Source: a virus
IMG/VR virus record: IMGVR_UViG_3300036770_004917
Location: 1 to 64,000 of that record
DNA: 64,000 bases
Reading direction: 5' to 3' (one strand)
Below, piece by piece: positions 12,401 to 59,041 of this stretch. The notes below the pieces were generated by a model that was not told the origin of the DNA, made no database searches, and worked only from the letters and a program-made list of their open reading frames with translations. Numbering within the stretch: position 1 is the stretch's first letter; each line of letters starts with the position of its first letter. The translations under genes and the position numbers were made by a program.

Positions 12401-14742
12401 GAGCCTGTTGTTCCGCCAATAAACCACATTGTCGGCGTAGATGATGCATTTTCTCCAGTTGCGCGAGCGAATAATGAGTCCAGTGCGAGTTGGCCCAACT
12501 CTCCATTGCGCCGCGCCTCCTCTGCTCTGGCGAGAGCCTCCGTTACATCGGTGTTGTAACGTGACCTAGTAGAAATGCGCTGATTACTTACGAATTGGTC
12601 GACTACATCTGGCGGCAGCCTCAGCAACATCCTGTCCGGAGAGTCGGCAATGTACGTCGGGTTATTGAGTAGCCAGTCATGGGCCTCTTTTTCTGATTTG
12701 GACATTGGCCCGAGAAGCAGATTACTTACACTTCGCGTTGAAAATGAGCGTGCGCGTTCCGACAATTGGGACTGGTTTCGCTCACCAACGAATGTCATAA
12801 ATTCATTTACGCTCATGCCTAGGACATTTGCCATATTGGCGATGGCTGTATTATCAACACGCATTCGCCTGCCTGGGTCATCATCGGTAAATGCAGCAAA
12901 TGACTCAGCAAACCACTCTATTCGTGCAGTTTCCGCATATTCACTTATTCTACGAGCAGAGGCTCTCTCCTGTTCAGAACCCCAAGTTACGGACCGGTAG
13001 AGCGCTTCTGAGAATTTTGCCGATGCATCATTGCCACGACCCTGTTTCAGATTCTCTTGTAGTTCCGAATATAGGGAAATCAGGTAGTCGCGAGCAGGGC
13101 CACCCTGTTTGGCGGCCATAAATTGCCAAGCGTGTGCAAGTTCGTGTCGTATCAATGAGTCGAGGTCTTCGTCCCTAAACATTGAGTCACGAACACGACC
13201 GGTTACTGGGTCAGGAAATGCGCCGGAGTTAAATGCTATGAATCCCGTTGGTGCGTAACCCCCGATTACGCTCTGCCACATACGTGGACCTGCAGTGAGG
13301 TCAATAAATCCCATATTGTCAATATCTGGCTCATACCCAGTCACAACAATTGGAGGCATGCCATAGCGTCTAACCGCATTGCGGACACCTGGATTCCTGA
13401 ATAGTTCATCCTGGATAATTTTTCGTACCAGCAAAGTCGCTTCGTAGTCTGGCTCAGCGGCAGTGATTCGCTCGTAAATCCGTTTTGCATTTTTGCGTGT
13501 GTATGGACTGTTCTTGAGCGCTTGCATCAACTCTTCGTTAGAACCTGGAACTAGTTGGGCAACAAGGTCATTTAGTTCACCGGCGCCCAAGAATTCATAT
13601 TCATCATCCACTGCATCAAGGGCCTTCATTAGTGTTGATGCGTCCCTCTTGCCCATTCTTTCCGAGCCACGCGATATTTCTAGGTCAGCATCGCCAAATG
13701 CAATACGCCCGTCCTCCATGACGGTATTCTGCGTATAAGTTGGTTTCTTTTTACGCGGACTCAAAACATCGCGCAGTTTGGACAAGAGTGGGTCTTCTCG
13801 TTCGGTCGGAACGTCATTTGGGGTAACCCCTATTATCTGGGAAAGAACATTTTTGTCAATTGCGCCGTCAACAGATAGTCCACTTCGTCGATTCTGTTCG
13901 TTGGCGAGTGCCGTTGTTCCAATCAGATTCTGTACACGGCGTCCAGTCCCCTCAGGAATAATGAATCGTGGAATGATGGGGCGTTCAAGTGGGAGTCCTT
14001 CAAAAACGATTCCATCTTTGTCGGCATCTATTGCCCCAGTTACATCAATAAAAACAAATCCGCTCGGCGCAGCGCGAAGCCCACGGCCAATTCGTTTGCC
14101 AACCTTTGGTCCAAGTCCCTTTACCTGCATTGAGTCAGCGCCATGAAGGTCGTCATAAAGTGACTTTTTGCGAGACCTCATTGTTTTTGGTTGATTACGC
14201 TTGACTACGTCCGCGATAAATCGCTCTGTACGTTTTTGCATATTTCGGCGACCAAGGGCAGTGCGGCCTGTCCTATTTGCCAAATCTGTCATATTGGTGC
14301 AGGGCATCCAGATTGTTCTGCCAGAACGGGAAATTCTCCTACTGACGCCAATGCATCCAAGTTGACGCGACCTATCACGTGCGGCCTCGATGTCCGTAAA
14401 GACATCTGGGTCTTCATCGCGTGGTGCGGCCGGTTGATATTGCTTACCAACTACGCCAGAGACAAGTCCGCCACCAGCGAGGGTATCAATTGCGACGATT
14501 CCACGAGAACCGAGATTCTCCCATTGGCGCTGCATGTTGTTGTTGCCGCGCTGTTGACGGCGTGGTGCAGAAATAGGCCCCATGGCAGATGGGCTACTAG
14601 GGACAATTTTGGCCAAAGATTCTGCGCTTGAACATGGACGCCAAACTCCATCGCTCGTCTGATGAGCGCCAGAGCAGCCAAGTTTCTTTGCCTCACGTAG
14701 GGCCTTCATCTTTGCTGCGGTAGTTGACGTAACCGCGTTCAT
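6451..14742 (-). CDS. Giant polyvalent protein A (2763 aa): GC..G..W.PC repeats, tag, zincin, zeta-like P-loop kinase, two pentapeptide blocks, HDxxGH domain, second zincin, transglutaminase/papain-like domain
   Basis: HELAH..EYA..EWFAESF; GGTTGSGKT..IDPDIIK; pentapeptide periodicity; HDVIGH..FDRHGE; HEFGH..YA..EDFAES; GDCYE..VHG..GHAW; 9 exact STRS. Confidence 0.85.
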   Translation of the reverse strand: MNAVTSTTAAKMKALREAKKLGCSGAHQTSDGVWRPCSSAESLAKIVPSSPSAMGPISAPRRQQRGNNNMQRQWENLGSRGIVAIDTLAGGGLVSGVVGKQYQPAAPRDEDPDVFTDIEAARDRSRQLGCIGVSRRISRSGRTIWMPCTNMTDLANRTGRTALGRRNMQKRTERFIADVVKRNQPKTMRSRKKSLYDDLHGADSMQVKGLGPKVGKRIGRGLRAAPSGFVFIDVTGAIDADKDGIVFEGLPLERPIIPRFIIPEGTGRRVQNLIGTTALANEQNRRSGLSVDGAIDKNVLSQIIGVTPNDVPTEREDPLLSKLRDVLSPRKKKPTYTQNTVMEDGRIAFGDADLEISRGSERMGKRDASTLMKALDAVDDEYEFLGAGELNDLVAQLVPGSNEELMQALKNSPYTRKNAKRIYERITAAEPDYEATLLVRKIIQDELFRNPGVRNAVRRYGMPPIVVTGYEPDIDNMGFIDLTAGPRMWQSVIGGYAPTGFIAFNSGAFPDPVTGRVRDSMFRDEDLDSLIRHELAHAWQFMAAKQGGPARDYLISLYSELQENLKQGRGNDASAKFSEALYRSVTWGSEQERASARRISEYAETARIEWFAESFAAFTDDDPGRRMRVDNTAIANMANVLGMSVNEFMTFVGERNQSQLSERARSFSTRSVSNLLLGPMSKSEKEAHDWLLNNPTYIADSPDRMLLRLPPDVVDQFVSNQRISTRSRYNTDVTEALARAEEARRNGELGQLALDSLFARATGENASSTPTMWFIGGTTGSGKTTLRTSGILSGVPGADTAVDIDPDIIKTMHPDWDGGRGASAVHGWSTQWALYGMRQAAAQGRDYTVTGTGTRVDQMLIGRDNGYRVIGHYVHVPTSIAEERMATRGQQGGVKLPTNLASQYAAELQYKVRKAITNGYMDEFYLWDNSQGEGNASLAAVRREDGTFDIINRKVFDEFFGKDGSRAVEKYWEEQMAQRVSGSVLASTRSSSFNYGNSTRSSQNRNLPERLVIESPPNKKATILRKNIIGKRTSHSELSNVILGSDVDLSDSEWISANFFSVTADNLKTSNPIVLRNSILRGVSFRNTQIPRGSDMRRTSLERVAFEGSEVVDVDFGETSMRGVDFSKATVGGINLRDAILERVDFDLADLNNSGLTPEQMLGSGISWTDRTKFSPQIQQFIASLPEGQVVNQNGKYSFKVNAESTTPINRADSNYAKARQIALGIRAIDIPEAPSDGSPISGLDATASKISDSGWLALRRSTITKSYMDRFSAIKQSLSDVKMTDSWMDGARFTGSTLQDVSFGGSTLRRASFRGVKIRGVLDMRRTDLRQADFSGAKFDPEALRTSAIDLRGADLTNAHLGSLPLGKLRLDNATLRGAVWDGPTSMISKDLRDRGLAGTRSMSRTTSYGAATHIGELSDRLSSPSRLSSSEKTQLIQDMSSMYRELLDMRLERPERQEFADFIESLRDSASNEINKFRVPGMTNRSMLLIESARADDKRSFVDRFKKIREAEPDFMKSLSAIQAWREASSAARKYEELDALHSQALDELRENREVAQSLPQLQNILHGDFLDDKNRKPATGRLQPGKRDKTPVISSQGELSSMRSTRSSLFRTYKNRPMTEDEKQRFQPLNLADGEKAKIESGVKLVFANEYDEIQSTLIVGPQVMRFRGTPGTKIYIDPNPPEQDFIDEKMAEWEKAFGPPSDPRRRTSSNQSGGGGRRSSDSQRQSGNDDEDALDRINRLVDEDRARRDTQSTRSRTDTYLLAEQTEDEIIKNLELDEREAEIAKNILAGSSVPRDVLDRYYAEQRNHRFYIRQKIDDLEPDISIGETGKKIAESLSIRVSSNGIPVITSQPHPIFNSIIPDRRDWTYVEAPSADAVRNIIEQAQEFERDWDPSIGEAISVARESLYKIVLDKLDEVGAGPEKIKYTKFADFAPYLLDSLENPRRAINNLEGTDGIHDVIGHLGTGRGFDRHGEWANALAMVSVITNHPDIGLNADERDRVARWWLDTYGANQLMHQLRTDAGEDLKKIMLVNQDSTYKGIKKAIYEWPGTVQDFIDSLNTQPANPLRSTRSSRITNTPNGVFNLAYLEQDVRRAQFMSNISATRSGRSTGGMQRRQNPVTASDITRSIVSRRSTRSITSLTPQLRISEDGSRAYMDASAKDAFLANPQALLDGLTEADIPDGYFPKGERNKLDKYKQDLLAVASLDSLVPSDDGLGVSARHLFAVDAFDSSKPNPPDIVRTDNRRNILATRRTEKIFHQADVSTLRTGEALFVSDIPAGAKMSGISNAVVVRNADGSLTLIEIDDAAELDSIKSRMGAASPRVNENGIGVFTFDDIRPPSGDSGKIAPIVLALENFHTTIADINPRIPRPNIIFKSDAFAGNIDGIDATRVSGTAYPDANSIVMWKTSEQSPYVDIMLHEFGHSVDFSLGFRTAIDDREISYSNKYAFSSLTDDWVPAMEGDESHGILFGQSNVPLAVITDSGLAKQPTSVPGTSYRDIAPSIDGSHGPRIGQRFITQYARESERYEEDFAESASLFLRDRMFGYIASVTNANGDRREYSFAEMYPNRAAVLEKLLYASTRSSKNFDNRFKSAYGSNPIDGDGDCYEMAVTMAQRLRGPEFNFSDDQIRIVHGIPLGTGGEAMGIRYGHAWAEVAIDGWDKYEQLRNEIADVLRQAETLTSSSLRNGLTKRHNQLMQELIRMEMENVTVYDFSNGNEHQIPRYLYYKIGNIEDENTRYYTAKDAVTKILADETFGPWE

Positions 14743-14749
14743 TACTGAA

Positions 14750-15091
14750 TCAACCTCGCGTTGCTAGGTGAATCTGAATATCATCTTCTGACGCGCCATC
14801 CATGGACATTGCCATCTCCGTGGCTTCGTCAGAGTCAAATGGATATCTCACCATCCACAGGGATGCTTCCTCAAACTCCTGTGCATATTTCTGCATGACG
14901 TCCGCTTGTTTCTGCAGTTGCCACTCTACAACTTCTTCGACTGAGGCATTTTCTGGGAATTCTCCACTACTAGCCATCTTTATGGCCTCAAAGTAGAGTT
15001 CGCTATTTGTTGAAAATGGTGGATACCTGAGCATTGTTCCTAGAACTCGCTCTTGCTCCATCCATAATTTCATGTTTTCCGATAGTTCCAT
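14750..15091 (-). CDS. Hypothetical acidic protein
   Basis: 113-aa ORF packed tightly between two giant genes. Confidence 0.65.
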   Translation of the reverse strand: MELSENMKLWMEQERVLGTMLRYPPFSTNSELYFEAIKMASSGEFPENASVEEVVEWQLQKQADVMQKYAQEFEEASLWMVRYPFDSDEATEMAMSMDGASEDDIQIHLATRG

Positions 15092-15095
15092 GGCG

Positions 15096-18000
15096 TCAGT
15101 CTACTCTCTCTCCGTTATTGAGTTTTTTAACGAGTGCTGGGTCTAGTCTGCCACCTGTTTTTATCGCTTCCTCTACAGCGTCTGTCATCCCTAGGCCACC
15201 AACACCACCGTATGTTATCAATTTCCCACGGTTCATAACCAGCATGACTCCACTATCCATTCTTAATGCATCATAACCAAGGAATGGAGCGAGGTAGTTC
15301 TGTAAGAGTCCATTTGTACCCTCAACGAAGTAGCGCAGTGCATCGAGTGCATTGGCTCGTTCGTCTGGGTTTGATGCATTCCGAACAGCGCTAACAAGTT
15401 GTGAAATAACCTGTCCACCCTTTGTTTGCCAACGTGCATCGCCTTCCGGTATGGATGCGTAAAGCCGTTCTTCCAGTAGTTCAGCAAGTTGTTCAGCGGC
15501 TGCTCCAGTTTTTCTGTTACGCCACTCTCTCGGCAACGACGGGTCCTTGAGCGCAGTAGAAATACCACCACTAACGGCATTCATTTCTCTCTTAATTTGT
15601 TCCAACTCAGACTTACGTATGATTTTTGCATCCGCAGGAAGAATTGCCATAAGGCCACCAGGTCCTGGCTGTGTTCCTTTTTTGCCCCTTTGGTTGTCCT
15701 CGGTGACATATCCTCGCCAACCACCATCGGGTGACGTATTCCCACCCTCAATCCGGACAGCCCAGTATTCTCCAGGACCCTGCATTGTCCCACCGTCTCC
15801 AGTGGTGTGTCTTTGGACGTCGTCCATGTACCGTTCGGCGAATGTATGTCCACCGAAACCACGTCTAATTACTATGTTGCCTGAGTCTTTTGCTAGTTCA
15901 AGAAACTCTTCTTCGGTAACGACCGTTGGACGCTCCTGCATGCCATTGAGGTCCCAGATGCTTCCGAGGACTCTGTCGGCTTTCAGGTTGCTGGCCTTGA
16001 GTTCTTTCTCTAGTTTTTGCCTCTTCTTCTCATCTTTTTTGTCTTCCTTGGACAGTTCCCCGGACCTTGGTGCACGAGTTAGAAGTTCCAAGTCAGCAAA
16101 TTTAGACAAACTATCCTTCGATAGCGTTGGGCTGCCATCGTCGGCAAGGACAAATGCTGGAGTTGGCTGAGTTTTCCTGGTATGTGCCTTAAGGATTTCT
16201 GCAGAATCTCTCTTTTTGCCAGCAAGCAACTTAAGTCTATCCGCCTTAATGCGCTTGAGTATTCTGAGTTCCTTGGCAGTTTTGTCGGCTTCTTCCGCAC
16301 GTCCTCCGTAGGAAACCTGGCCCTTCTTCAGTCTCTCCAGGCGTTCCCTACCTTCTTTTCTCTTCCTGAGGCGCTCATTGTGACGCTTTACCCAACCTTC
16401 TGCATCTGGTCTTATGAACTTGGCAAGTGAGAGTTTGCGCCAGAATGAATCGCCACGAATCGCCGATGCGTCATCGTCAGCAATACCAAGTGCACTCTGT
16501 CCCCAAAGTTGAGATGAGTGGTCAAAATCAAGATTCACATCATCACCAACAATGGGACCATCACCAACAATGGAGTCAGCATTGGGTCGCGGATTACCAT
16601 TTGAGTCATAGATAACTCTATCGTCACCCATTCGCCAGCCGAATGCACTTGAATCCGGCAAGTCATACTTTGATGAACCGGATTTTTGGTCGTGATACCA
16701 CTCAAATACTTCAGGGAGTTCACCAGCATCAAACTTTGCCTTCAACTCCTTGTATTCCTTGGAGTTGTAGCGAATTGCCTTATTGTTTTTCCCCTTTTGG
16801 GTAGTTGCCCACTTGCGGAAAACCTGATTTTTTGCGGCTGCGGCACCAGTAAGTGAACTTGGGCTACCGAGTAATTCTTTACGCATTGAAGATGGTAATT
16901 GCTCAGCAACAAATGCAAGACTGTCGCCGCCCTCTTCGTTCCTCCCATTATTTGAGTTAATTCTCGCACCGGCAAGAACTAGAAGTGCCGACGTCTGGTC
17001 ATCAAGCATTTTGATTTTGTCATTTATGTCCTTGAGTTGCGTTTTCTTCAATCCAGGACTCAACTTGTCATTTGCTTCTATTGCGTCGCGCTTCTTGAGT
17101 AGGAGTTCACGAACTTTTCCATGTGTTGCCGAAAGTCGTGCCAGTCCCTTATCGCTGAGTGCAAGGCGCCACTCGCCAGTAACTGGGTCGCGCTGCGTCG
17201 TAAGGAGTTGATATCTCGCGAGGGAAGCAAACTTCTGTGCCTGCCGTTTATTTTTGGCAGTAACAGTTTTTTCCGCTGTCTCGCCCCATAGGTTGAAATC
17301 GGCTATGTCGCCGAATAGGCCAACGAATTCATTGGTTCTTCCGGCGCCCTCAATCGGCGTCAGTTTGGCACCTCTTGTGGTATCAAGCATCGCAATTTGC
17401 TGAATTTCTCCATTTTCATCAATTGATGCAAAGAGGTTGCCAGCGCCACTAACCGCCTTAATGAGACTCTCCTCCATCTCAATTGCTCGCGACTCAGTGA
17501 GTCTGCGTTGCTCTGGAGTAAGGGATTCCCACAATTGGCCGTCTTGTTCGTCAATTCTTCTATGCCCTGGAGATTTCAGTCCGTCAATTGCGGTATCGCG
17601 CCCGCTGCGGAGAGATGAACCCATGTCGATGTTGGCAATTCTCTGGCGCTCTGAAACACTTCTAGTAGATGGTCCTGCACTCCCGATGCGACGACCCGCA
17701 TTTCTGGCACGACGACGTGCTGCAACTTCACGACCCGCAACACGAATTGATGCATTTGGATTGTTCATCAACTCATCGCTAATTAGTCTTCGACGCTTAA
17801 TCTCAGCGTTGGCGCGCTGTAGGCGTTTTCTTAGTCGCTCAAGTTGTTCTGGAGATGGCGAGAGAACAGAAGAACTGCGTGTTGATGCAAGCATTCTCAT
17901 GTCTGCCTCATCGAGGTCATCTGGACCGGTCATGTAGAAATCAATTGCTTCTTGTGCGTCTTCTACACTTGGGAAGGACCTGTCGAGCCCACCGGCAACT

Positions 18001-21000
18001 TGTTCTGAACCTGAATCAAGTTCAAAAATGTTTTTCCACGTACCATCGGCAGTGCGTTCCTGACCATCGACTGAGTAGGAGCCATCTTCGTTGCGGAGGA
18101 TTTCAAATCTGGCATTGCCGTCATTGCTTCTTCCACGACTCACAACCTCGCCATTGGCCGTGTCGCTATATCGTGGGGTGGTGTTGTCTGACCCGGGGCG
18201 ATTAAAATTAACCAACTTGCTGCTGCGTGTTGACTTTTGCAGACTTGCGCCATATCCAGTACCTGGCTCAAATCCACCAGCAAACATCTGTGCATCCGCA
18301 TCAAACGCTGGAGAATATCTGTAATCATTTCTTGTCGGCATGCGTCGCAAAGAAACACCCTGCTCATTGGCGAAGTTGGTATCATTGGCATTCATTGCAA
18401 ACTGGTTGTATCCACGCTCAAATGCGGCGCTTGATTCATATGAGCGTTTTTCTGAACGAGTACTAAGTAGTAGATTGTTTGCATCTTCTTCTGAGATTTC
18501 TGGCAAATCTTCCTTATCGGCATCCCGTATCTGGCGATAATCCCAATCACGAACATCGTCAAGGAATTGGGGACTGCTGGCATAGTCCTGGAAAGAAGGC
18601 TCACCAGCATCCACGTCTATGCCTTGTTCGTCGGCATATCCGGGAACATTGTTTACGGAATTCAACCAGTTATTGTAATATTCGCTAGATTCTTCAGAGA
18701 ATAGGAATCCATCAATAACGCTACCCTCTGGATACTCGCGTCGTCCAAGGTAAGGAACTCTGTCCTCGTTTTGAGCAACTCCTCTACGGCTGCGCAAACT
18801 GCGAGTAGAAGCACGGTCCGCCGCAGCAGAACGCAGGCTTAGGTTGCCACGCCCATCGTCGTCGCCATTCATGCCATTCCAGGCATTGATTCGCATTACT
18901 TGGATGGCATCCCAGTCACGAACATCGTCGAGGAACTGGGGACTACTTTCGTAGGATGCACGAGATGGCGAGACACCCTTTTCTACGCCCTGCTCTTTTG
19001 CGTATGCCGAATTGAGTCTAGTTAGTCGTGCCCATCTGCTGAAGTTGTCTTCAAAGTCGCCCGACTCTTTGTATGCATCAATGACTGCTGGTTCTGGCTT
19101 TCGGTTGCGTCCCAAGCGAGGAATTCTGTCTTCTTTTTCAAGATTCAAATAACTTGAGCGATTGTTTCTGCGTAGCAACCCTGTTGCCTTACTGCGCTGG
19201 ACAATATCTTTGAATTTTGCAATAAATCGTGGCTGACCGGGAGATGGAATGTCAAACATATGTCCACGTTCAGCCATTTGCTGAGTAACAAAATATCCAT
19301 CACTGTCCGCGACGCTCTGCAATAGTTGTTTCAAATTCCCCAGAGGTTTCCTGTATCGTTCTGGCAGTTGCCCAGCCTCCATTTCGCCATTGAAGACACT
19401 TACCGTCCGGAGTGCCGCATCAAATTCATCGCGAGACATAATTATTGAATCAACGCCACCGATGGCATTTTCCACAGTGTCATACAGTGCTGCGATGCTG
19501 TTCGCATCATCGGAATCGGCAAGAGCCTCAACTTCATCAAGATTAATAAGAATGTCGGCTATTGAGTGAAGGTCGTCGCTGAGGTCCCCAAGTTGCGATA
19601 GCGTCATGCTTACTTCAACGTTCGTGTCATCTTCACCATCGCTACGTGCTGAACGGATTGATGCCAATGATGGGCGCTTTCCTGGGAAATTGAACGAGCC
19701 ATCGTTGGTGAATTCGGAAGCCGGTATCTGGAATGGCACTTCACGTCTAATTGATGCTTGATACTCCATATCGTACTTGTCGAGAATTTGCTTAATTGCG
19801 CCAAACATATTCCTATCGCGCAGCGCAGCAACTACGTGCTGATATTCCAATGAATTCGATGGGCCCTCACTTCTGGAGAGTTCGCTCCACCTATTGGCCA
19901 AGATATTGAAATACTCTTCAAGTAATTGCCTGTCAGACATGCGTTCAAAATCCGCATAGTGAAAACCATCTGCCGGTCGTGCCAGTCGGAGGTCTCCATC
20001 GCGTTGAGCCAATGAAGCGGAGCGTGAACTCTTGATTCCATTGTTTCTGTCAGCCATCGTTCTTCTCGTGGAGAGGAGTTGACGGCCCGGTTCTGCGGAT
20101 GTCAAATACTCAAGAACGTCGTCGTATTCCATGTCCTCTGGGCCGTCTACGTACTCCCGAATGGCTGCCTCGGCATCATCGATGGTTGAATAGGTTCCAT
20201 CGATATTGTTCATGGATAGTCGTGAATCGTTTACTTCCACCCCGGAGAAACCAACCAGATTCCATTTGCCATCTGAGTCGCGCTCTCTTCCGACAATCAC
20301 ATAGTCGCCATTTGGGGTGAGAACGATTTCTGCATCAAAACCGCCCGATGAATCGCTGCCACGCATCACAACCCTACCGTCGACGGCATCCGAGAAGCGG
20401 GGGGTGGTGGAGTTTTTGCGCGAAACCGGACTCATGACCACTGACCTGGTTGACGGTCCGTGCAAATCTTTATCGAATGTGTCGCGAGGCTGACTGAATC
20501 TGAAAATTGATGGAATTAGTGTCCTTGATTCACTGCGACTTACTTTTTCGCCACCCGGCGAAACATCGCTTCCCGAAACATTCACCCGAGCACTGGGCTC
20601 ATATCCTTCGAATCTGTCCGCAATATCTTTTGCCATCTTCTGACGAGCGCTAATGGTATCCACAAACAATTTGCGCATCTGTGGGGGGACTCCAGCATCG
20701 CCCATTTCTTGGTCAATCTTCTGCAGATTCAAATGCTCAACACGTCGCATGGCGACGACTAGGTCATTGTTTGATACGCGGCCGTATAGGTTTGAGATAT
20801 GCTGACCACGAATCGGTGCGCCAGGCATGTAAATCATAGTGGCGACGTCATCCCATGGAGCATCTGGGCTAAATTCTGGCTTCTTGCTTCCACCCTGTGC
20901 CCTATATGGTCCAGCCCCACCGGTATCTACTGTATAAATAACACCAATTGGGTCAACCATCTTGTTATTGCCACCACTCCAAGCATCTCTGACCTGAAGA

Positions 21001-24000
21001 AGCATGTCAATACCCATGTCCTGCTTTGCTTGGGCACGCACTCTGCCTGATGGGCTTGATGTATTTTGGAGATTGTCAACCTTTTCGCTGACCACCCAAG
21101 TGTCTCCGGCCTTGTCTTTGATTATTGCCTTGTGGGGAACCCCTGCACCGGCAACTCTATATACTGCAGCACCAGCAACTTCTGCTTCTGCATGACCATC
21201 AGAACGTCCGCGCTTAGCAAAGAAAATTCGTCCAGTGCTATCGTCCTCGAACCAATATCCCTCATTGAGTCCAGTTGGCCCTGGGATGCGGCGCATTGTA
21301 TTTAGGTCATCCCATGTTGGCAGCGACACACCGCTTACAACCGGCCCACTATATGGCGAGGCGCTGCGGGTTGAGGCGACACCAAAAATTTCCTTGAGGT
21401 CACGAGGTGTGACAATGTCATTGCCAATGCGTATGTAGTTACCAGCGCCCATATTTCGTGCATTTAGGAGATTGCGAATCTCTCCAGAATCAGTGACACT
21501 TGGAAGAATTGTGTCTACCCAGTTGTCCCAATTGTCTGAGCCGAGCGAAGGGGTAGCAACTGAGCGGGCAGACCGCGTTGACTCAGTTTGTGGTTTTGCC
21601 TGCTTTGCAAAATCTTGCACGCGCTTGCGCAATTCATCCTTAATCGCTTTTCCGCGTGGGGTGTTATACCCTTGCAGGTGGTCGAGGACGTGGGCGGTGA
21701 TTGATGCAGCACTCAACTTGCCCCAGGAATCATTCATGGATGTCAATCCCGCAAATGTGCCATAGGATTGGTGCGGACCACCGTTGTTTTGGTCACCCTT
21801 AAGCGGTATCGCTAAGACGTCGGCCCTAATCATTCTTGCAAGTTCATACAATGGCGCTTTAGAAATTTCACGCAATTCTTCTGGGGATAGTGGCTCGCTG
21901 CCGGTTCTGGCGGCCCGTCTTCCACGCTTAATGCTGCGGTCGAACAGAAGTGCGCTAACTGCCCTATTGACCTGGTTGTCGCTGGGCGATGTCTTTCCTT
22001 GCCGGGCAAGCCAAATTCTTGCAACCTGTTCCAAATCAATGACATCGTCGGCCTCCATTTTCAGGAGGTTTGCCAATGTGGGCAATCCGTCTGCATCAAG
22101 AGAGTTAATATCATCATTTGGCACAATGCCGGAACGGAGACTGCGCGGGAATGACTGTCCCAAAAGGTCACGTGGATTGAAGGGCTTAATTCCTTGTCGT
22201 TTATTTCTCTCGGCAATAGCACCTTCAAATCGCGTATCTGGGTTTCCGCCGATTCCCGCCCTGCTGCCTTCGTTGATAATGTCATCAAGTTCTTTGTCTG
22301 ACATCTCTTCGAAGTTGATACCTAGTAGTCGCTTGACATCCATTGGGAGGTCATCTGCACGGCTGGCCCCTTGGCCTGTTGCGCCCGGACCTGTGAATGA
22401 ACGAGCCGAACGAGTCGATGGCACCCTCTGGGCATCTTCGAGGTTTGCCCCATCAAAATACGATTCGCCAGTATCGTCAGGGAATTTGGCATCAGTCAAA
22501 TTTGCATCAGTAAAGTCGCTATCGGAAATTCGTGATTCCGTGAAATCAACATTCTCCAGATTTGCTCTAATAAATTGTGTCCCCGTAAAAGATGAACGGC
22601 CAAAGCCTGCCCCTGCCAGGTTGGCATTTGTGAGGTCTGCTTCGTTAAAACTTGCACCACTCACACCTTGGCCCGAGGTCTCTGATAGATTTGCTCCCGT
22701 CAGATTTGCCCTATTGAACCAAGTATTTGAGATATTGGCTCGGTTGAGATTTGCTCCACTCAGATTGGCCTCAGTGAAAGTTGCACCATTAATATTCGTG
22801 CCTGACAAATCAGCATCCGTCAAGTTTGCCTTATTGAAATTTGCAAAATCAAATGTTGCTTCTCTTAGGTCCGCCCCACGAAGGTTGGCCCCAGTAAATG
22901 ATGCATCGTAGAGATTTGCTCCAGTGAAGTCAACAGATACGAGTTCCGAATCTGACATGTCGGCACTATCAAGGTTGGCGTTTTTGAAATTTAGACCAGT
23001 CAATCGCATTCCGGACATATCTGCGCCACTGAGGTCTCGGTCACCTTGAAGTTCTTCGAGAATCTGCTCTTCCGTTGGTGCTGCGCCCTTCCATTTTGTT
23101 GATTCCAGGCGAGAAGAACGCAGGCTGACTGATTCGCGCCTACGTTGGTCGCGGCTTCTTAGTGTCTTGTCTGGGGCATGCTTACCACCACGCTCGTATT
23201 TGAAACCCTGCTTTTTGATGTCGTTAAGAATGCGCCCAAGGAAGTCGGGGTTCGACTCCAACTCCCGAACCCAGTTGTCGTCTACATCTTTATAGGTATA
23301 GGTTCGGCCGCCATTAAAGGTAACAATTAGTTCCTTGGCATCATCGTCCCATGAGATTTTTTCAACAGCACGCGAACCCTCGGTGTTGATTTGAGTTTTT
23401 CCACCCTTGCCAACCCTGCTTGCACCAGCGCGACGTGCGTTCATTATCGCCCCTCTGGCACGGGCTGGGTCGAGTGGGTTGCGGCTTGCAGTAGCGCCAC
23501 TCGGTACGAATCTTGAAAGCCTTGATGAATCGTCCCCAAGAAGCACCTGAATCTGCTCACTCACGGCAGAAACGTCACTATCGGTCAGTCGACCTGCACG
23601 ACGCAATTTTTCATTTTCTTCGGAACTTCCCTCAAGGAGTGAAGAAATTTTTCTGCCAAGATTTTCGGGAACCGTAAAACGTGGGATGATGGGACGCTCT
23701 AGGGGCGTGCTCTCGAATACGATTCCATCTTTGTCGGCGTCAATTCGGCCAGTTACGTCAATGAACACCAAACCGGCTGGGGCGGCACGAAGTCCACCAC
23801 CAAGGCGGCTTCCGAGACGCTGGCCCAATTTTTTGACCTCAATAAGACCACCAGTAATATCTCTATTTTTGATGAGAGACTTATGGGCGACATCGTTCAT
23901 GCCAACAACCCGCTGTGCTCCCCTGGAGATTGTGGCATCAACCTTCGCTTGCATGTGTCGCGAGGAAATACCGTCAATACGCGAACGTACTAAGCCTGTT

Positions 24001-27132: not shown

Positions 27133-27143
27133 TATTTCCTACT

Positions 27144-40833: not shown

Positions 40834-40856
40834 TCCGGGCTCCAATCCCGACTGTA

Positions 40857-42425
40857 TTACTTGTCGTCGCCGACTTCTGTTTGCAGAAGTTCAAACTCCA
40901 CGAGGCTCTTAAGGAACTCTCCTTCAGAGTCACCATCAACAGAGATACTCTTTTCGCCCGCAGCCCATTCTGCTGGAATCAGTTTTTCCATACCGAGTTC
41001 CATTGCGCGCTTCATGATGTGACGCTTGGCAGCAGGAATATCTTTCGCTCTGCCGTGAGCCATAATTGCGTTGCGTAGGTCAGCCTCTCCGGAGATTGGG
41101 AAAGAGCCGTCTTCCATTGCTTCACCAGACTCAGCCATTTGCTGGCGTGTCTCTTCGGAGAAGGCGCGCTTGAGTGAAATTTCTGCAGCCTCGGCCTCAA
41201 TCTCATCAACATCGTCCGGCTCCCACTTGTCCCACCCGAGAACCTCGCCATCCAGGGCAACGTAAACGTCATAGGACTTGCTGTCAAAACCGTCCACTTC
41301 CACCTGATAAGCATCAAAGCCCTCAAACACGCTGGGCTCAACCGCCATGACGGTTCCAGGAACCGACTTAACGGCAATCTCAGCAGCCTCGTTGAAGTCG
41401 ATGAGTTCAATGTCGTCCATAAGTGACTTCTGCTCAAAAATGCTGTCGTCAAGACGATGGAAACCAAGAACCTCTGCAGTTGTTCCGTCAATGAAAACTT
41501 CATTCACGTAGCCAGACTTGGTCTGAACGTCAACGACAAACATGTCTGCTTCTGAGGAATAGCCAGAGTCAATTACATCGCCCTTGAACATTGTTTCAGC
41601 AAGACCCTCGACATGCAACAAGCCGGGCAGACCCTTCTCTGCAACACAACCACCAGGGCAGTCATCGCAGACAGAGATAGAGCCAGGGTAAACCTTGCGC
41701 TCAATTGCGCACATAAACCCATTGAGTCCAATATCGGCTGACTTTGTACCGAGCGAACGGAGGCGCTTCAGGCGGGCTGCTTCAAGGTCTGGAGTCATTC
41801 CAGAAGCAGCAGGACGCATGGGCATTACATCGCCCATCTCATCTTCGTCTTCCTCATCCTCCATCATTTCCTCGTCTTCGTCACCCTCCATCATCTCTTC
41901 GTCCTCTTCCTTGTAGGACATCATGCGCTTGCCCCAGCGCATACCCTTGGGGGTTGCCATTGGCTCCATGTCTTCTTCTTCGTCCATCATGTCGCCGTCA
42001 GCCTCGGGCATGGGCATGCGCATGCGCATACCACCCTTGCCGTTCGCATACATTTCTTCGTCCATCTCTTCGTCCATCATGGGCATACGCATGCGCATGC
42101 CACCCTTCTTCATGGGCTCAAGGTAATCGGATACTGCGGAATCCTCTTCGTCTTCCATATCAACATCCATGCTCATGCCCATTTCTTTCTTGGCACGACG
42201 CATCATGAGCATCTTCTTGTACTCCTCTTCGGACATCTCATCCTCGGGCAGTTCGGCAACTTCGTTAACGGGCACCATCTTGACCTCGACGGCCATTGCG
42301 CCACACTTTCCACATACCTTGGAGCCAGCCTTGTAGCCACACTCTCCACCTGCAAGGCCTTTGGCGCACTTAGCAACCGCACCATCACTGTCAATTTTTA
42401 CGATTGCTTTTTGCTCATAACTCAT
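40857..42425 (-). CDS. Acidic Met-rich scaffold-like protein with Cys clusters, two PepSY-like domains and a DGSFPI motif
   Basis: AAGGAG SD; C..C...CGKC; D/E/M-rich region; EAAEIA...PG.V..VE...Y.VEV...DVYV..DGEVLG; DGSFPI..DL.NAI..GR. Confidence 0.75.
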   Translation of the reverse strand: MSYEQKAIVKIDSDGAVAKCAKGLAGGECGYKAGSKVCGKCGAMAVEVKMVPVNEVAELPEDEMSEEEYKKMLMMRRAKKEMGMSMDVDMEDEEDSAVSDYLEPMKKGGMRMRMPMMDEEMDEEMYANGKGGMRMRMPMPEADGDMMDEEEDMEPMATPKGMRWGKRMMSYKEEDEEMMEGDEDEEMMEDEEDEDEMGDVMPMRPAASGMTPDLEAARLKRLRSLGTKSADIGLNGFMCAIERKVYPGSISVCDDCPGGCVAEKGLPGLLHVEGLAETMFKGDVIDSGYSSEADMFVVDVQTKSGYVNEVFIDGTTAEVLGFHRLDDSIFEQKSLMDDIELIDFNEAAEIAVKSVPGTVMAVEPSVFEGFDAYQVEVDGFDSKSYDVYVALDGEVLGWDKWEPDDVDEIEAEAAEISLKRAFSEETRQQMAESGEAMEDGSFPISGEADLRNAIMAHGRAKDIPAAKRHIMKRAMELGMEKLIPAEWAAGEKSISVDGDSEGEFLKSLVEFELLQTEVGDDK

Positions 42426-42580
42426 TGTTGCGACTCCTTGTAGTTTGGACCACAGCGAACTGTTTTACTCCATTGGGATAGTAGTCGCGGCGACGACCTC
42501 CCGGTGGAAAGGTTAAATATAAATTGTCTCCTGGGTTTAGAGTATACAGCAATTATGTGCTGTCATTTCTGCAACTTTTG

Positions 42581-45500
42581 CTAATCATTCAGGGCAATCT
42601 CTACCTCGTCGCCGTTCTCATTTATCTTAGTAATTGTTCGTGAGTGAACTGGTTCTGCTGTTCTGTTGATGAATGTGGCCATGGCAGCCTTCGCCATTAG
42701 TTCTGCCATTTCGCCAAATAGGGCCATCCTTGCTTCGCCACCCCGCTCCACCTGTCTGTCTAGCGCAACATAAAGTGCTTCAATAATTTCGTCAATTTCG
42801 TCTTGCGTTAAATACAGGGCACCAGCATTGGTTCTCCTGTCGCTCAATTTCCCGGATTTCTGACGGGTCAATGTCTTCTTCAATAAGTTCAGGGCGGCAG
42901 AATGACGCGGGTCATCGGCCTTGCTTATCTCCCTATCAAGCGAATTAAGGAGTTCGTTGAATTTCGTACGCTCTGCACGTATTTCTGCCCTGCCTTCCTT
43001 GACCGAAGACCGAGTGGAGCGAGTACTTTGCATAACCTCATTTTTGCGTGCAGCAAAATATGCATCAATGGCACGACCACGGATGCGTGGTACATATCTG
43101 GTTTTTGGAACAATGTCCATTTCGGGCATTGAGCGGACAAGGGGGGCCCCACGCCCTGGTGCCTTGTCAATGAATTCATCAGTCATTAATTCATTGCGCA
43201 ATTTATTTAGATAATCACGAGTTCCAGATGCCCTATCAATACTATTTTGTACATACTTTTTGCCAATTACGGAAGCACGCGGAGCAAATCCATTGGGTTT
43301 TCCATCCATCGCGTCAACGACAAAATCACTAGTCAGGTAATCATCCAGAATGTCAATTGCGTCATCAATATTTCCGATACCAAAATCAATCCCAGCACCA
43401 TCAGCATCCGCGAATAATTTCTTGACATCGTCCCATACCTGAGAGTGCCGATTGTCCTGATATCTGGTTGAATAAACCGAATCAAGTTCACTCTGGTACT
43501 CCCCTATGATGCTTCCAATTCCTGAAGCAATTCGCTGCCTGCGAACCCTGGCAGCCGTTGGGTTGGACGGGGTGCTGACGGGAGAATCCTCACCTCTAGT
43601 GGGCGATGGTGCTGTCGCTTTTGGTGGTGCAGTAATGTCTACTGGCAATTGGATTCCACTGCGAGTCGGGCGGACGGGAGACTGAACTCTTGATGACCGG
43701 ACAGGAACAGGAGGCAAGTCCAGGTCTTCGTCCTCAAGACCTAGTTCTCGCCGCTTATCAATGGCATCAAGAAGTTTTTGACTTGAGGCCATAATGTCAT
43801 CCCATATCAAGTTAAGGTCGTTGTCGGGTATTTCGCTAACTCCAGTCCTGCGCTTATCTGCTTCAGGCCTTAAGCGGCGCACTACGTCTGCTGCCTGCAT
43901 GTGGTTTAGGTTGCGGAAATCATTGTAGAAGACACTTCTTGACTCATTATCTAGAATATCTCTTGTTTTCATGCCAAGTGATTCCCAAGATTTTGCAAAA
44001 TCCGGAGTTGCGGCAGTGCCAGAACCGTTGCCGTAAATAACACTCTCGTAGTTATCACGACGCTTGAGGTTGTCTTGGACCATATTGAGTGCATCCATAA
44101 CTTCGCGAGCCTGCTTGATGGCATCGCTTTGTCTCAGGCCCTTATCCCCACCACCCTGCACCATGTTCTCTTTAATCCATGACAATTTGTCCAACGGTGC
44201 CATATCCGCATAGTCCGACGGTGCCATTTCTGCAAATGGTGTTCCTGCTTCGTCACCACCCTTTCTTGGCGCCAAAGACCCAACAGCAGAACGTGTTGGT
44301 GTGGAGAATTCCCTAATAGCATCCAACGACTTCCATGTTGCTATTGTTTTAAATTTCTCGTTAGCAAGTGATTGCGCAACTTTCATATTTGAACCTTGCG
44401 CCCAATCAAGAAGTTTTTGGCGACGCTCTTTATTTAGCGAGTAGGGTGCCCCTGAGTTGAACAGTGAGTTCACGTCAGTTCCGTTTGTCTGAGGGAATTC
44501 GGTTGCATCAAATTTTAATTTTGGTGATGATGCTGCATGGTCAAGCAATGCAGCACTTGCCGTGCCATCACTCATATTCGATGAACGAAGAGCAGTTATA
44601 CCATCACGAATAAACTCATACTCTGCTGGCGACATACTGAATGCAGTCTTGAGTCCACCACTCTGTCCACCAGCAATAAGTTTGTCATAGACATCAATCG
44701 CCGAAGTGATTTCGCGATTATTGGCAAAACGCTTTCTCAATTCTGCCAGTTCATCACGAACTATTCCAGCATCATTGTTGTCCAAAATAATGCTAATGGT
44801 ATTTGATGGCGTTTTTGGAAGAGGACGATACATGGGTGCTATTCCATCTGGCAAAAGGCGCGCACTCCTAGAATCCTCTAGTGCATCAACGATGTTAATC
44901 GCGGCAGCAGCCTCTTGATTCGCAAATAGTTTCTTAGCAATTGAGTGAGCCCTGATTGGGTCAACGGGAGCAACCTCGTCCCTGGATGATGCCGAATAAG
45001 CACCTGCAAGATTCTTTATTAGAGATGTTTCCGTAGAACTTAGTTTCACTCTCCGGGCATCTCGTTCAAGGAGTTGGGCAAGCCCTGGGACAAGACCGCG
45101 ACGGCTGCCATCTGGCGATACCGTATAACTGGAATCTTTATCAAGTTGATTTAGCGATGCGTCAACTGTCTTTCTGCTTTTAAGGAAAGTATCAATAACC
45201 TCATCATTCATTCCGCCATAGCGATAAATGCCGCCATTCCTGCCGATAATGAGTTCATTGCGGTTCCCATCGTATGCGACGAATGAAACATTGGAATTAG
45301 CGAACTTGCTTGAGCGACCAGGGAATAATTGTTCCGAATTTCGCAAATCAGTACCCATTTTGACTGTTGCCTTACTCGTTATCCGAGGGGATGCAACACT
45401 CCGAGTTGATGGGGATATCGCCAATACGGCTTGTTCGTCTAGTTCTGTAGCGGTTGTATTAATGACGGCTTGTTTTGCATCGGCCAGTTTTCTCTTGCGA

Positions 45501-48500
45501 CGAACGGAGAGGATTGCATTTTCGAGTATGTCTGATGCAGATTTATTGATGAACGACCTATCTTCATCATCAATGTCTCTTCCATTGATGATTGAGTCAA
45601 CTTCAAGCATGTCAATGTAGGAGCCAACCTGGTCGTTGCTTGCTAGTTGATTGAGTTCTTCTGCTAGTTCTGACGCTGAGGTGCGATTCATTCCTACTGG
45701 GCGAGACGTGCCACGTGGCCCGGTGTCAAATAATGACCGCTCCAATGCTGAGTCATATTCAAGAAGTGACAAGACATCCGCCCAGTCCTCTTCGGTAAGT
45801 CCAAACCTTTCGGCTGCATCGTTATAGCCTGATGCTTGCTTTTTCGCTTTTTTGTATGATGCTGAAGTGAGTGCTGCCTGACGCTCTTCGCGAACAAGGT
45901 GCTGGGCTGCAGCAAATATTTCATTTACTTCGCGTTCAATAGCCAATATTGACTCATCAAGAAATGCTGAACGATTTTCCATTTCGGCATTCGGCCATTC
46001 ATAATTAACGGCATCAAATTGTGCATCTAGTTCTTTCAACTCATCTCGTGAGTCATTCAGTTCATCTAGCAATCCACGAACTCTTCCGACTATTGCGTCA
46101 GTTGAACCTGCGCGGAAATCCTCTACCGTATCTCTCCATACAGCGGGTATCCGAGTACGTCCGCTACGGGTACTTGCTGGACGATTGGCATTAAGAAGTT
46201 GTTGGTCATCGGGGATAACTGCCGATATGGCATTACCACTCACTAGGTCACGAAGGACCAATTTATTAACACCATCTCGCATTCGCCCAACCGAAGCAAC
46301 CGAATATCTAGCGTCACCCTGTGATGCTAGGGATTGCATGAAGTTATCGGGGAGAATGTCACCAGGTTTGACATCGCTGCCAAATGATATATAAGACATT
46401 GAGCCATCACTATTTTGGGATGACAATGGACGACCGAGCGGCCTGAGTTCGCCACCGGCTCTCATTGCCGAAAGACCATTTATGTATTGTTCTTTCGCAT
46501 TGTTGCCTGGGGCGATAGTGCTTCTCGTAATATTGAGCCATTCCCGAGAAGATGGACCTTCTTTGCGTTTTCCGGGAATCTTGGTTGCCCGGCGCTTTTG
46601 CTCCTGTTCTTGCCTGACTTGTTCTGGCGTCAATTTTTTCATGTCACCAGTAACTTTTTTGTCCCCAGTGACATTCCACTTTTTGCGATTCTTGCCGCGC
46701 TTGGAGCGTGTCGATGGGATGTTACTACCTTGTGCTGTATCGTCGATTTCGTCGCCCATTTGTGTTGCGATACTTTGTCCACGGACACTGCGCGTACCAC
46801 CATATTCATACCCTTCGCCACGTGGTGTTGGTGCATCTGTTTCACCCTCCACTCCACGGATAATGTCACCAATCGCGCTTTTTTCTGAATTTCCGAGAAC
46901 ACCAATGGATAGAGTTTTATCCTTCTTCGGGATTTCCTGAACTCCGGTGCGTCTAGCAAAATCAATCTCGTCTTTATCACTTATGGAATAAGCAAGAATG
47001 TCGGCGCCAGTTTCAGCATAGATACGCTCAATTGCATCTATTTGTTCTTCGGTAAACCGAACATCGCCAGCCTCGAAGCCAATATATGGCCTTATCTGCT
47101 CAAGTACTTTTTCGCCTCTTGAATTTATTTTTTCAGTAATATTCCCACGACTCATGCGGAATCGGACCACCCCATCGTCGTAGGCGTTAAGGTAGTCGTG
47201 TTCGTCTCCGTGCTCACCAATAACTGGATAAAGCGTCCCATCTGGATACAGCCATGCTCCAAAAAAGTCAGAATTAATAAACTCATCCACGGTCATGAAC
47301 TTCATCTGTAGCGGTCGTTTTTCCGAACCCAAACGAGCAGAGTCGTCAGCCTTTGCCCTCATCCGTAGTTCATCACCAATTGCTGCCAATATGTTTGCCG
47401 CCCCCTCATCTGGCTTTCCTCTCATATCAACAATCGCTCGTATGTCCTGCTGAAGGTCTCTCAGCATTTCTGGCGTCATTGATGGCGAACGCAGTGGATA
47501 ATCGGCACGACCACTCAGGAATCTAATTTCCCTCAACGTAGCCCTATTCAACTTCCCGTTGTCTAGTGACTTTGTTATATCGTCAAGGAGTTTGACTAGG
47601 GCTGCATTATTAGCGAGGCGTTTTTCTTGCATTTGTTTTGTAATTTGCTCACGCCTCTGCTGCATGTCTGCCTTCATGACGGCCAGGGCCCTTTGTTCTC
47701 TTGGGGAGATATATGAGCGAGTAGAGCGGGTAGAGGATGACGCAAGCCCATCCGTGCCAGTCGTTCTGCCACGCATTCTCTTGAACAGTCGGCCGATTCC
47801 GCCCGGTTCGCGCTCTGTCAGGGAATGGTCTCCCGAATTGGCAAAAATCTCTGGAGCAACGAGTCCGAAAGACCGAAGAAGTTTGCCATTTTTATTCATA
47901 TCCATTATTTCTGACGCACTAAACCAACCGATTTCAGTGTTTTCCCCATCTCCGATTTTCACATCAGATAGGTCTCGTCTGCCAACTTCGTAGACATGGG
48001 TGTCGTATGCCCAATCCGGAGCACGTTGGTCACGGTAGGAATAAACCGGCAATAGCCCCTCCAAGTCACCGCCAACTTCCTCCCTAAATTCCGTCACCGC
48101 TGTCTCCATCGGAATTTCAGAACTGTCCTTATCCTTATGGACACCACCAGGGAATGACCATTGTCCGCCCCCAGAACTCATCCATGGGGCACGTCTGGCT
48201 AGTAGGTATTCATAATCTCCGGATAGCCCCCTACGGCGTCGCACCAAGGCGCCAGATGCGCCATACCGTCCATTGAATTTTTGGCCAGTAATGGAGAAGT
48301 AGTACCCCTCCCCAGTCTCCTGATTTGAGCCGCCACCTCTTGGTGCAAAGAATGGATATGCGGGTGGCTTTAGTTTGCCTGCACGAAGAAGGGAAACTTC
48401 CCTGCTGGATATTCTGTCCGCATAATAGACACCATCATCACTCTGCAGAATTTTGTATTTTTCCCACGGGCTTGCCGTCTTTTCTTCTTCTATTTCCGCA

Positions 48501-59038: not shown

Positions 59039-59041
59039 TCC

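Follow-up and report, generated by a model that had tools for sequence, protein, structure and literature searches.

We analysed bases 1 to 64,000 of the IMG/VR virus record IMGVR_UViG_3300036770_004917 (the window; the full record has 86,043 b and is rated 57% complete) and found that three giant proteins encoded on its minus strand share a conserved module of about 100 amino acids (aa). Our tentative reading, developed below from sequence comparison, is that this module marks the mature start of polyvalent cargo proteins packaged in the heads of uncultured HK97-type phages with genomes of ~125-156 kb, where a cut would place it at the new N-terminus and it would then be retained as an address or anchor. 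Packaging of the cargo proteins is very probable, and we infer it because their genes lie between those of the prohead protease and the major capsid protein and because of the fusion of one copy to the protease. The more doubtful part is that the module itself acts as the docking or address element, which we regard as possible.

A conserved module in three giant proteins

The long form of the module was found at three places in the window, each confirmed by a profile match:

52208-52513, minus strand: copy a, aa 13-114 of the 3322-aa protein, with K14-A-L-G (profile E 6e-49)
23529-23837, minus strand: copy b, aa 211-313 of the 3123-aa protein, starting V-K212-K-L-G (profile E 8.2e-44)
13807-14124, minus strand: copy c, aa 207-312 of the 2763-aa protein, starting V-K208-G-L-G (profile E 4.1e-43)

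A first-pass annotation of the window, made from the letters alone, had described near-identical segments of 57 aa as an N-terminal tag on otherwise different giant proteins. The segments themselves were recovered at a level well past chance, since tblastn of 52343-52513 against the whole record returned, all on the minus strand, the query region (100%, E 2.2e-35), 23667-23834 (75%, E 4.2e-26) and 13954-14121 (77%, E 4.5e-26). A fourth, weak match fell at 30170-30244 (56% over 25 aa, E 1.2e-4). The length of 57 aa was too short, as the likeness extends ~45 residues further, to ...EGD..EIE.QRRAG...FDE..L, and the unit spans ~100 aa in a 26-row alignment (A2) and 99-101 aa in blastp between the paralogues. 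Placement at the N-terminus held for the 3322-aa open reading frame (ORF), in which the module starts at aa 14, and failed for the 2763- and 3123-aa ORFs, in which it starts at aa 208 and 212. The giants are also nearly as different as was claimed: beyond the module, blastp between the 3322- and 2763-aa proteins found one further common stretch of 29 residues, but the 2763- and 3123-aa proteins have in common pentapeptide repeats and ~65 aa upstream of the K.

The consensus of the first half of the module is phi-K-x-[LV]-G-x-K-x-G-x-R-[IL]-G-G-G-L-R-[SA]-A-P-x-G-M-x-F-V-D-[IV]-T-G-x-x-D-[AG]-D-x-D-G-I-V-F-E-G-x-P-(G)-[LM]-E-R-P-I-I-P-R-F, and after P-R-F the second half continues ... E-G-D-x-x-E-I-E-x-Q-R-R-A-G ... 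F-D-E-x-x-L. Across the 26 aligned sequences 27 columns are invariant, D37, D39, D41, G42, E46, E51, R52 and P53 among them. Copy a shows the order of the parts, with K14-A-L-G followed by a Gly/Arg-rich stretch, a DADNDG loop, ERPIIPRF and two predicted helices. The three window copies are identical at 42-43 of 57 residues (74-75%), with a nucleotide identity of 66-68%; synonymous sites are saturated, and 25-30 of the identical residues are encoded by different codons. Because the residues were kept while the bases diverged, we take the copies to be old paralogues under selection and not products of a recent duplication.

Distribution and gene context

A profile search of 1.84 billion representatives returned 45 matches at E<=1e-3, of which 41 reached E<=1e-10; apart from a few short fragments these were proteins of ~530-5000 aa, with the module starting near residue 10-25, 200-226 or 450-470. 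A word-indexed search found 46 proteins with the module. Within IMG/VR it was present at 47 loci, in which we placed the window's head proteins by tblastn. At 25 of these loci the module came immediately after the prohead protease, and at 19 immediately after homologues of the window's 211- and 681-aa proteins, with the capsid gene next in 10 of the latter; at the other three (L016, L019 and L020) no head gene was visible. The 211- and 681-aa neighbours are conserved across the lineage. The annotation's idea of a portable, head-linked unit agrees well with this picture of large proteins from one lineage only, of varying leaders, of exchange between positions and of 44 loci out of 47 in slots beside the protease or the 211-/681-aa pair. 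The contrary outcome that it had named, a motif found mainly in non-virion proteins, is not what was seen, and among 185,579 species genomes in GTDB none of 166 pattern matches was confirmed as a relative.

L016 and L020 can be assigned to the window's phage lineage, because both carry an 88%-identical copy of a gene that the window's record has at 66.6-68.5 kb. In these two relatives (L016 9296-10369; L020 7957-9876) an extra tagged protein of ~1050 aa, with a leader of at most 3-11 residues, is encoded near that copy; unlike them, the window's record has no tagged gene by its 66.6-68.5 kb gene.

The number of copies varies. Each of two records, one of 137 kb with terminal repeats (100% complete) and one of 156 kb (98% complete), gave a single long and a single short match; two long copies were found in a record of 125 kb, and three long plus one short in two partial records, as in the window. 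In a tree built from 26 modules, copy b grouped with its positional orthologue in G005 (support 95/97) and copy c likewise (97/90), not with each other. Copies following the 681-aa protein in one sublineage nested within the post-protease clade, which indicates that the module has been exchanged between gene positions. The pairing of orthologues, together with copies kept at 66-68% base identity, argues for long-standing purifying selection on a common function.

The joint with the prohead protease

The module of the 3322-aa protein lies directly downstream of the protease gene, at a run of seven A:

52552-53934, minus strand: prohead serine protease of 460 aa, with an S78 domain at aa 18-171 (PF04586; phrog_80, E 5.4e-29) and a C-terminal extension of ~290 aa
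52555-52561, minus strand: A7 run at the protease stop, where the -1 frame reads K-K-I-I-V-P-G-F... into copy a (from sequence and conservation)

The window protease ends GGT GGT TCA AAA AAA TAA, and the -1 frame at the junction (52549-52570) reads K-K-I-I-V-P-G-F-A-E-L-G-L-D-A-E-S-K↓A-L-G (here and below ↓ marks a known or candidate cut) and is open into the 3322-aa ORF. Ten distinct junctions of this type share GGT GGT TCA AAA AAA; in each of them the 0 frame meets a stop within 1-5 codons, and the -1 frame runs on into the module. The joint thus has the conserved slippery run and open downstream -1 frame by which programmed -1 frameshifting is recognised, as in dnaX and the phage tail chaperone G/GT. 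In four database proteins PF04586 and the module are found in a single ORF. Of four in-frame fusions, three retain A7, with the -1 frame there stopping at once, and one (L017) is without it. Either layout can yield both free protease and protease-cargo, the slippage being predicted from the sequence. A more distant sublineage (portal 80-83% identical) is without A7 and has a tagged 4980-aa protein with its own ATG and a 20-aa leader. Our literature search found no paper on a protease-cargo frameshift in such phages.

A large protein containing a protease domain is also known from a cultured phage. Gordonia phage DalanDe, an actinobacterial myophage with a related capsid protein, encodes as gene 27 (L052 14943-19844) a 1633-aa 'capsid maturation protease', in which the protease domain lies near the C-terminal third, the reverse of the order in the window lineage. 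This protein has no DxDxDG motif and a single K-x-[LIV]-G, near its C-terminus.

A candidate cut site ahead of the module

Sites resembling the start of the module were also found in three window proteins that are without it:

5507-5521, minus strand: A-S-F-K96↓S-V-G in the major capsid protein, at the end of an N-terminal delta-like region, a candidate maturation site by likeness to HK97
26291-26305, minus strand: N-V-K70-R-V-G in the 681-aa protein, followed by a Gly-rich stretch (LIGSTGRIGQTLQAAG), with K-R-V-G in 9 of 9 homologues
40330-40344, minus strand: R-I-K169-E-L-G in the 3372-aa protein, followed by RSIGSTMGR...QAAG, from a motif search

The tag had been said always to follow K-x-LG. 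In the 66 database tag proteins with enough upstream sequence (12 others are 5'-truncated) this was largely so, with K-x-[LIV]-G in 55 and a loose variant in nine, and it did not hold for two, which have none. Within the window, [VSIF]-K↓x-[LV]-G stands ahead of every long and short module, and seven non-capsid proteins have a site of the K-x-[LV]-G type, whereas no conserved K-x-[LV]-G or F-K-[AS]-[LV] was found beyond the module in the window proteins. In HK97 the mature capsid chain has 282 aa, against 385 aa at full length, and starts SLGSD where the gene reads TFNK↓SLGSD; the window's capsid protein has a candidate site that resembles K↓S-L-G, ASFK96↓SVGD, at the end of its delta-like region, and four of six related capsid genes have K-S-[VI]-G. 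These likenesses make a protease site at K↓x[LV]G probable. In both structure models the K site was disordered, as was the Gly/Arg-rich stretch after it (predicted local distance difference test, pLDDT, <50).

Twelve head-module proteins contained eight [VILFM]-K-x-[LV]-G sites against 2.4 expected from shuffles (seven of the eight within the first 350 aa), and K-S-[LV] stood 10-16 residues upstream of the K at four of the seven non-capsid window sites, but both motifs were defined after being seen, and these counts overstate significance and are indicative only. The K-S-[LV] motifs ahead of K-x-LG lie, all on the minus strand, at ~14160-14170 in the 2763-aa protein, ~23880-23890 in the 3123-aa protein, ~30300-30310 in the 1084-aa protein and ~3195-3205 in the 652-aa protein. 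In the capsid protein K-S-V-G and K-S-L are 13 residues apart. Judged by sequence, such K-S-[LV] and K-x-LG pairs may be paired cut sites.

Two further candidates were set aside. A Gly-rich stretch like that at the start of the module was considered for the 681- and 3372-aa proteins and was unsupported, as neither matched the profile at E<=10 and the likeness of the 681-aa protein was visual only. An F-K-A-L at aa 8-11 of the protease was dropped as a cut site and is probably structural, because the proteases of Cantare and DalanDe have Y-K-[GA] at the matching domain start. Apart from K-x-[LV]-G, all that the 681- and 3372-aa proteins have in common (regions 24464-26509 and 39346-40845, minus strand) is a separate motif, R-C-P-x-G...F-T-D...C (9 of 20 residues identical, E 0.004), which in each lies downstream of the protein's own K-x-[LV]-G site.

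Leaders, C-terminal regions and short forms

Two window copies follow conserved leaders, and two proteins carry shorter versions of the module:

23835-24467, minus strand: leader family A, aa 1-211 of the 3123-aa protein (blastp single-linkage group of 21 including the window leader, to which the others are 26-80% identical)
14122-14742, minus strand: leader family B, aa 1-207 of the 2763-aa protein, with a DUF3721 match (blastp group of nine including the window leader)
30167-30277, minus strand: short form, aa 154-190 of the 1084-aa protein, F-K155-A-L-G ... DGDGDGFVDDGLPTMRPFIP (tblastn E 1.2e-4; profile E 0.0014-0.0033)
2995-3174, minus strand: short form, aa 348-407 of the 652-aa DUF6321 protein, I-K349-A-L-G ... 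YDPNARDADGDGTIQEGTDYAR (by likeness to short forms of relatives)

What precedes the module ranges from at most 3-11 aa in L016, L019 and L020, through 20 aa with an own ATG in L059-L061 and ~210 aa in the two families (26-84% identical to the window's leaders), up to ~465-470 aa in those cases in which the protease itself stands ahead of it. Across this whole range the module remains constant, and it is kept in full (~64-68% identity) in proteins with 3-20-aa leaders and without protease fusion. This constancy, against a preceding element of three residues to a whole protease and variable parts behind, is the strongest argument for a common function of the module itself, and it agrees with a role as address or anchor. 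In any one positional series conservation covers the leader, the module and a C-terminal region of ~150-350 aa, with a variable middle. A likeness of the leaders to each other, to the C-terminal part of the protease or to the capsid delta domain was sought and rejected (no blastp hit below E 0.1), except for the ~65 aa immediately ahead of the K, over which leaders A and B can be aligned. In leader B, from the 2763-aa protein, there is a single DUF3721 match (aa 11-39, 14626-14712, minus strand, E 4.4e-9), and a second DUF3721 look-alike at ~14290-14365 on the minus strand (LGCIGVSRRISRSGRTIWMPC) was noticed by eye only.

The shorter versions proposed in the first-pass annotation fared unequally when the long-form profile was run against 722 six-frame segments of the window. 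The form at 30167-30277 was marginal, yet recurs as weak orthologue matches in 1069-1073-aa open frames of G004 and G005. The one at 2995-3174 was not significant (E 3.8), though it clearly resembles a short form of relatives, FDPNAIDGDEDGLVQEGT, found directly after the protease in two complete genomes, where GGGSKK↓ALRSLRR..FDPNAIDGDEDGLVQEGTPFERPATP is read in frame, immediately past the protease. An 866-aa protein of one complete genome has an intermediate form, EK↓ALGRALRRGARRAATGG..FNPNAEDADGDGFVQEGTQFARR (EK↓ALGRALRRG...FNPNAEDADGDGFVQEGTQFARR). Since relatives supply such linking intermediates, we treat the long and short forms as one theme.

Sequence family and the DxDxDG loop

Pfam gave no match to the module, either in scans of the full proteins or for five isolated segments at E<=10 with Ca-binding families included, and PHROGs gave none. 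A literature search found no paper describing it, the supplementary domain tables of PMC5512222 lying outside its scope. As far as Pfam, PHROGs, two fold searches (described below) and the literature go, the module would thus be an undescribed sequence family, and it may be among the 40 unnamed domains of PMC5512222. Loops of the type Dx[DN]xDG are well known to bind Ca (PMC3123361), and the linear motif D-x-[DN]-x-D-G was found in the module, with D37, D39, D41 and G42 unchanged in all 26 sequences, and in the short forms too. The loop itself was modelled poorly (pLDDT <50 at residues 45-48, mean 49 over residues 41-50), and the first ~19 modelled residues, comprising the K site and the Gly/Arg-rich stretch, were predicted to be disordered. 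A search of the ESM Atlas gave a best score of 0.77, under the tool's noise level.

Proposed role and alternatives

Read from its N-terminal side, the unit begins with a variable leader and a hydrophobic residue ahead of K-x-[LV]-G; next come a flexible Gly/Arg-rich stretch (LG.K.G.RIGGGLR.AP) and a predicted small domain round the invariant D-x-D-x-D-G loop and E-R-P-I-I-P, and last two helices and a variable array of enzymes. This anatomy, the conservation, the synteny and the tie to the protease are seen in the sequences, and from them packaging, cutting, docking and the metal are inferred. In the mechanism that we tentatively favour, cargo would first enter the assembling prohead, one copy by fusion to the protease through a -1 slip on A7 or in frame, and the other copies through the module itself and/or their leaders. 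The S78 protease would then cut after the K, as the HK97 protease does at K↓SLG of the capsid protein. The module, now at the new N-terminus, would finally hold the cargo on a conserved head component until ejection; its partner might be the shell interior, the portal or other tags, and a bound Ca ion is possibly involved.

An alternative that we consider unlikely is that the module is purely a processing cassette, which presents K↓x[LV]G as a protease docking site, while targeting falls to the protease fusion, leaders A/B or the C-terminal regions. The candidate cut site always adjoins the module, the second K-S-[LV] 10-16 aa upstream at four of the seven window sites suggests a two-cut cassette, and copy a is physically joined to the protease. 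The leader families are conserved, as are the C-terminal regions within each positional series, and either the ~210-aa leaders or the protease fused by frameshift could do the targeting. Such a cassette fits poorly, however, with the full module being kept behind 3-20-aa leaders with no protease fusion, where nothing needs release, and ~80 well-conserved residues past the site are much for a substrate exosite.

Somewhat less likely again is a device for exit or for the host side, in which the Gly-rich N-terminus and a small Ca-dependent domain would thread first into the portal or tail channel, or would act in the host envelope or cytoplasm. Giants of ~300 kDa have to pass a narrow channel, the module would be at the mature N-terminus if the K is cut, its first ~19 modelled residues are predicted to be disordered, and the loss of Ca from the invariant loop residues in a low-Ca cytoplasm could be a natural release switch. 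The tie to the protease and the presence of cut-site-like sequences in the capsid protein as well point instead to assembly, although the two roles are compatible with each other.

By analogy with encapsulins, the Gly/Arg-rich LG.KLG.RIGGGLRAAP might be a retained label that docks on the inner HK97-fold shell, with the DxDxDG domain as a Ca switch for hold in the Ca-rich head and release in the Ca-poor cytoplasm; we regard this version as improbable.

The first-pass annotation had compared the tag with the T4 internal-protein targeting sequence, and in its strict form, in which the module would target the prohead core and then be cut off and lost, this analogy is very improbable. In T4 the capsid-targeting sequence lies before the protease site and is removed. 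Here the sole conserved cut-like site, K-x-[LV]-G, precedes the module, in 64 of the 66 proteins, and the window proteins have no conserved site of this kind after it. Because the module lies after the likely cut, itself a candidate, it would be retained on the mature protein, which departs from the strict T4 pattern. Nor do its size and place suit a short peptide at the very start of a protein: the unit has ~100 aa with predicted strands and helices, starts at aa 208, 212 and 14, and is internal in two of three ORFs. A conserved ~210-aa leader stands before it in two of the three genes and the protease in the third, and only the 1041-1068-aa proteins of L016, L019 and L020 have it at a true N-terminus. 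What does recall T4 is a common segment on otherwise different packaged proteins, like the T4 internal proteins (PMC3012670), and a cognate head protease gene next to it. Finally, that the module is a leftover of duplication with no assembly role, as the mosaic cargo genes with their exchange of modules might suggest, is hardly credible given its fixed place relative to the K site and protein start in 64 of 66 proteins, the 74-75% of residues kept at saturated synonymous sites and the fixed syntenic slots by head genes at 44 of 47 loci.

Beside the late definition of the motifs, several results weigh against the reading of a cut and retained address or anchor. The K may be part of a binding peptide and not a cut site, because K-x-LG is kept with leaders of 3-4 aa, where cutting seems purposeless. 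In two of six related capsid genes K/R-F-G-[TS]-V-G replaces K-S-V-G. Targeting might in truth be done by leaders A/B or by the conserved C-terminal regions. Two complete genomes hold one long copy plus short forms, so the long form is not essential; at L019 the tagged 1068-aa gene lies amid replication-type genes (AAA_5, DUF1599, SNF2) and not head genes; and no cultured carrier was found, there being no tblastn match to the first 150 aa of the 3322-aa protein in 50,697 records of cultured phages. The AlphaFold2 model of the module (from the 26-row alignment), with its strands and helices, reached a moderate confidence (pLDDT 70.6), and that of a natural protease-module fusion (L024:8606-10303, 29-row alignment A3) was uninformative (pLDDT 51.5, predicted template modelling score 0.22). 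Foldseek of the module model against the PDB gave a best E of 0.66, a comparison of structures only, as no sequence search against solved structures was made, and VIA-align against 48,161 chains gave a best Z of 3.4 and no fold assignment. Lack of a match to such a model does not show a new fold.

Other genes of the window

The remaining features named above are the following:

54043-56094, minus strand: portal protein, from a protein family scan
42581-52549, minus strand: 3322-aa cargo protein with a NUDIX domain (Pfam)
15096-24467, minus strand: 3123-aa cargo protein with pentapeptide repeats and KTSC (Pfam)
6451-14742, minus strand: 2763-aa cargo protein with DUF3721, a Zeta-toxin-like kinase (Zeta_toxin/AAA_33), pentapeptide repeats and a weak DUF6782 metallopeptidase match (Pfam)
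4496-5803, minus strand: HK97-fold major capsid protein (Pfam and solved-structure comparison)

The order on the minus strand is portal, protease, the 3322-, 522-, 3372-, 1084-, 211-, 681-, 3123- and 2763-aa proteins, capsid and the 652-aa DUF6321 protein, and the portal and large terminase genes adjoin. In the window ~47 kb of mostly giant genes separate the prohead protease from the capsid gene; in HK97 the two genes are adjacent. The best cultured matches of the capsid protein are in actinobacterial phages (~46-50% identity). The 522-aa protein (40857-42425, minus strand) has a Cys-rich N-terminus and a long, very acidic and Met-rich middle with repeated G-G-M-R-M-R-M-P-M; its only match in PHROGs is a weak one, to the tail end of a head-protease family (E 0.0085), and it may be scaffold-like. 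Just past the large terminase gene, a Rad52/22-family annealing protein and a PD-(D/E)XK nuclease form a recombination pair (58214-59830, plus strand).

Comparison with known systems

Polyvalent proteins, known from phages and conjugative elements, are in phages very large proteins with many conflict-related domains, for which packaging in the capsid and processing by peptidases have been proposed (Iyer, Burroughs, Anand, de Souza and Aravind 2017, PMC5512222). As described there, the class has 2 to 15 such domains and belongs to phages with portal and terminase, and in the window giants we found Zeta_toxin/AAA_33, pentapeptide repeats, DUF6782, DUF3721, KTSC and NUDIX. Because this content of kinase, pentapeptide, NUDIX, KTSC and metallopeptidase-like domains fits the class as published, we place the window's system in it. 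The main text of PMC5512222 is without the terms 'pentapeptide' and 'Zeta toxin', and Pfam scans of the window proteins found no MuF family. What sets the window lineage apart from the polyvalent proteins of that account is the head protease at the N-terminal end, joined by frameshift or in frame, together with the shared module.

The likeness to HK97 lies in the same protease family (PF04586), the same capsid fold and TFNK↓SLGS (K103↓S104), which resembles ASFK↓SVGD and the module sites; the difference is that the window phage has a maturation-like site on seven non-capsid proteins. To our knowledge, HK97 does not process packaged cargo. Its protease is said to be targeted by its own C-terminal part, a finding of Duda, Oh and Hendrix from 2013.

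Encapsulins, whose shells also have the HK97 fold, load cargo through short Gly-rich peptides ending in basic residues, with the consensus SDGSLGIGSLKRS and N-terminal TVGSL variants in family 1 and GPTGLGTSAAR in family 2 (PMC8346489). These peptides bind a pocket that includes an N-terminal helix, which in family 1 encapsulins replaces the N-arm of other HK97-fold proteins, according to the same source. LG.KLG.RIGGGLRAAP of the module is similar in composition only and too short for statistics, so that we treat it as a lead and not as a finding. If the encapsulin-like version were true, encapsulin loading and phage cargo packaging would be one mechanism, with a short transferable tag for HK97-type capsids.

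Giant phages of the phiKZ type, such as Salmonella phage SPN3US, offer a further comparison, as their heads contain much protein that passes into the host and the prohead protease cuts several of these proteins; they differ in having another protease and another cut motif, and the abstracts report no shared module after the cut (PMC7411985, PMC10052503).

T4 internal proteins and P1 DarB offer a parallel to what we propose for the window, in that proteins with nothing else in common bear one element, travel inside the head and pass into the host; DarB is also a giant (~250 kDa). In T4 the signal is short and occupies the N-terminal extremity, and both it and the first 30 residues of DarB can load foreign proteins, as reported in PMC3012670 and PMC9024508. 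The window unit has no sequence likeness to them and is different in kind, with ~100 aa, a predicted small domain, a place after the candidate cut site and leaders of 3 to ~470 aa. For the P1 Dar proteins the authors state that they found no common signal (PMC9024508), whereas the window giants have an obvious one.

Few signals that load proteins into phage heads have been mapped, and those of T4 and P1 DarB are not recognisable by sequence across cargo proteins. Here, an easily recognised conserved module marks up to three giant cargo proteins per genome in a lineage of abundant uncultured aquatic phages, and its position coincides with the joint to the head protease. If the module is an address or anchor, it would provide a simple rule for predicting the proteins that such phages inject, a testable model for the loading, cutting and holding of 300-kDa multi-enzyme chains, and a candidate tag with which HK97-type shells could be filled with proteins. 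If it were a processing cassette only, it would define how an S78 protease recognises substrates other than the capsid protein, of which we found no description in the literature searched. Altogether, and by analogy, the functionally nearest systems would be the capsid-targeting signals of T4 and P1 DarB and the protease-processed ejection proteins of giant phages.

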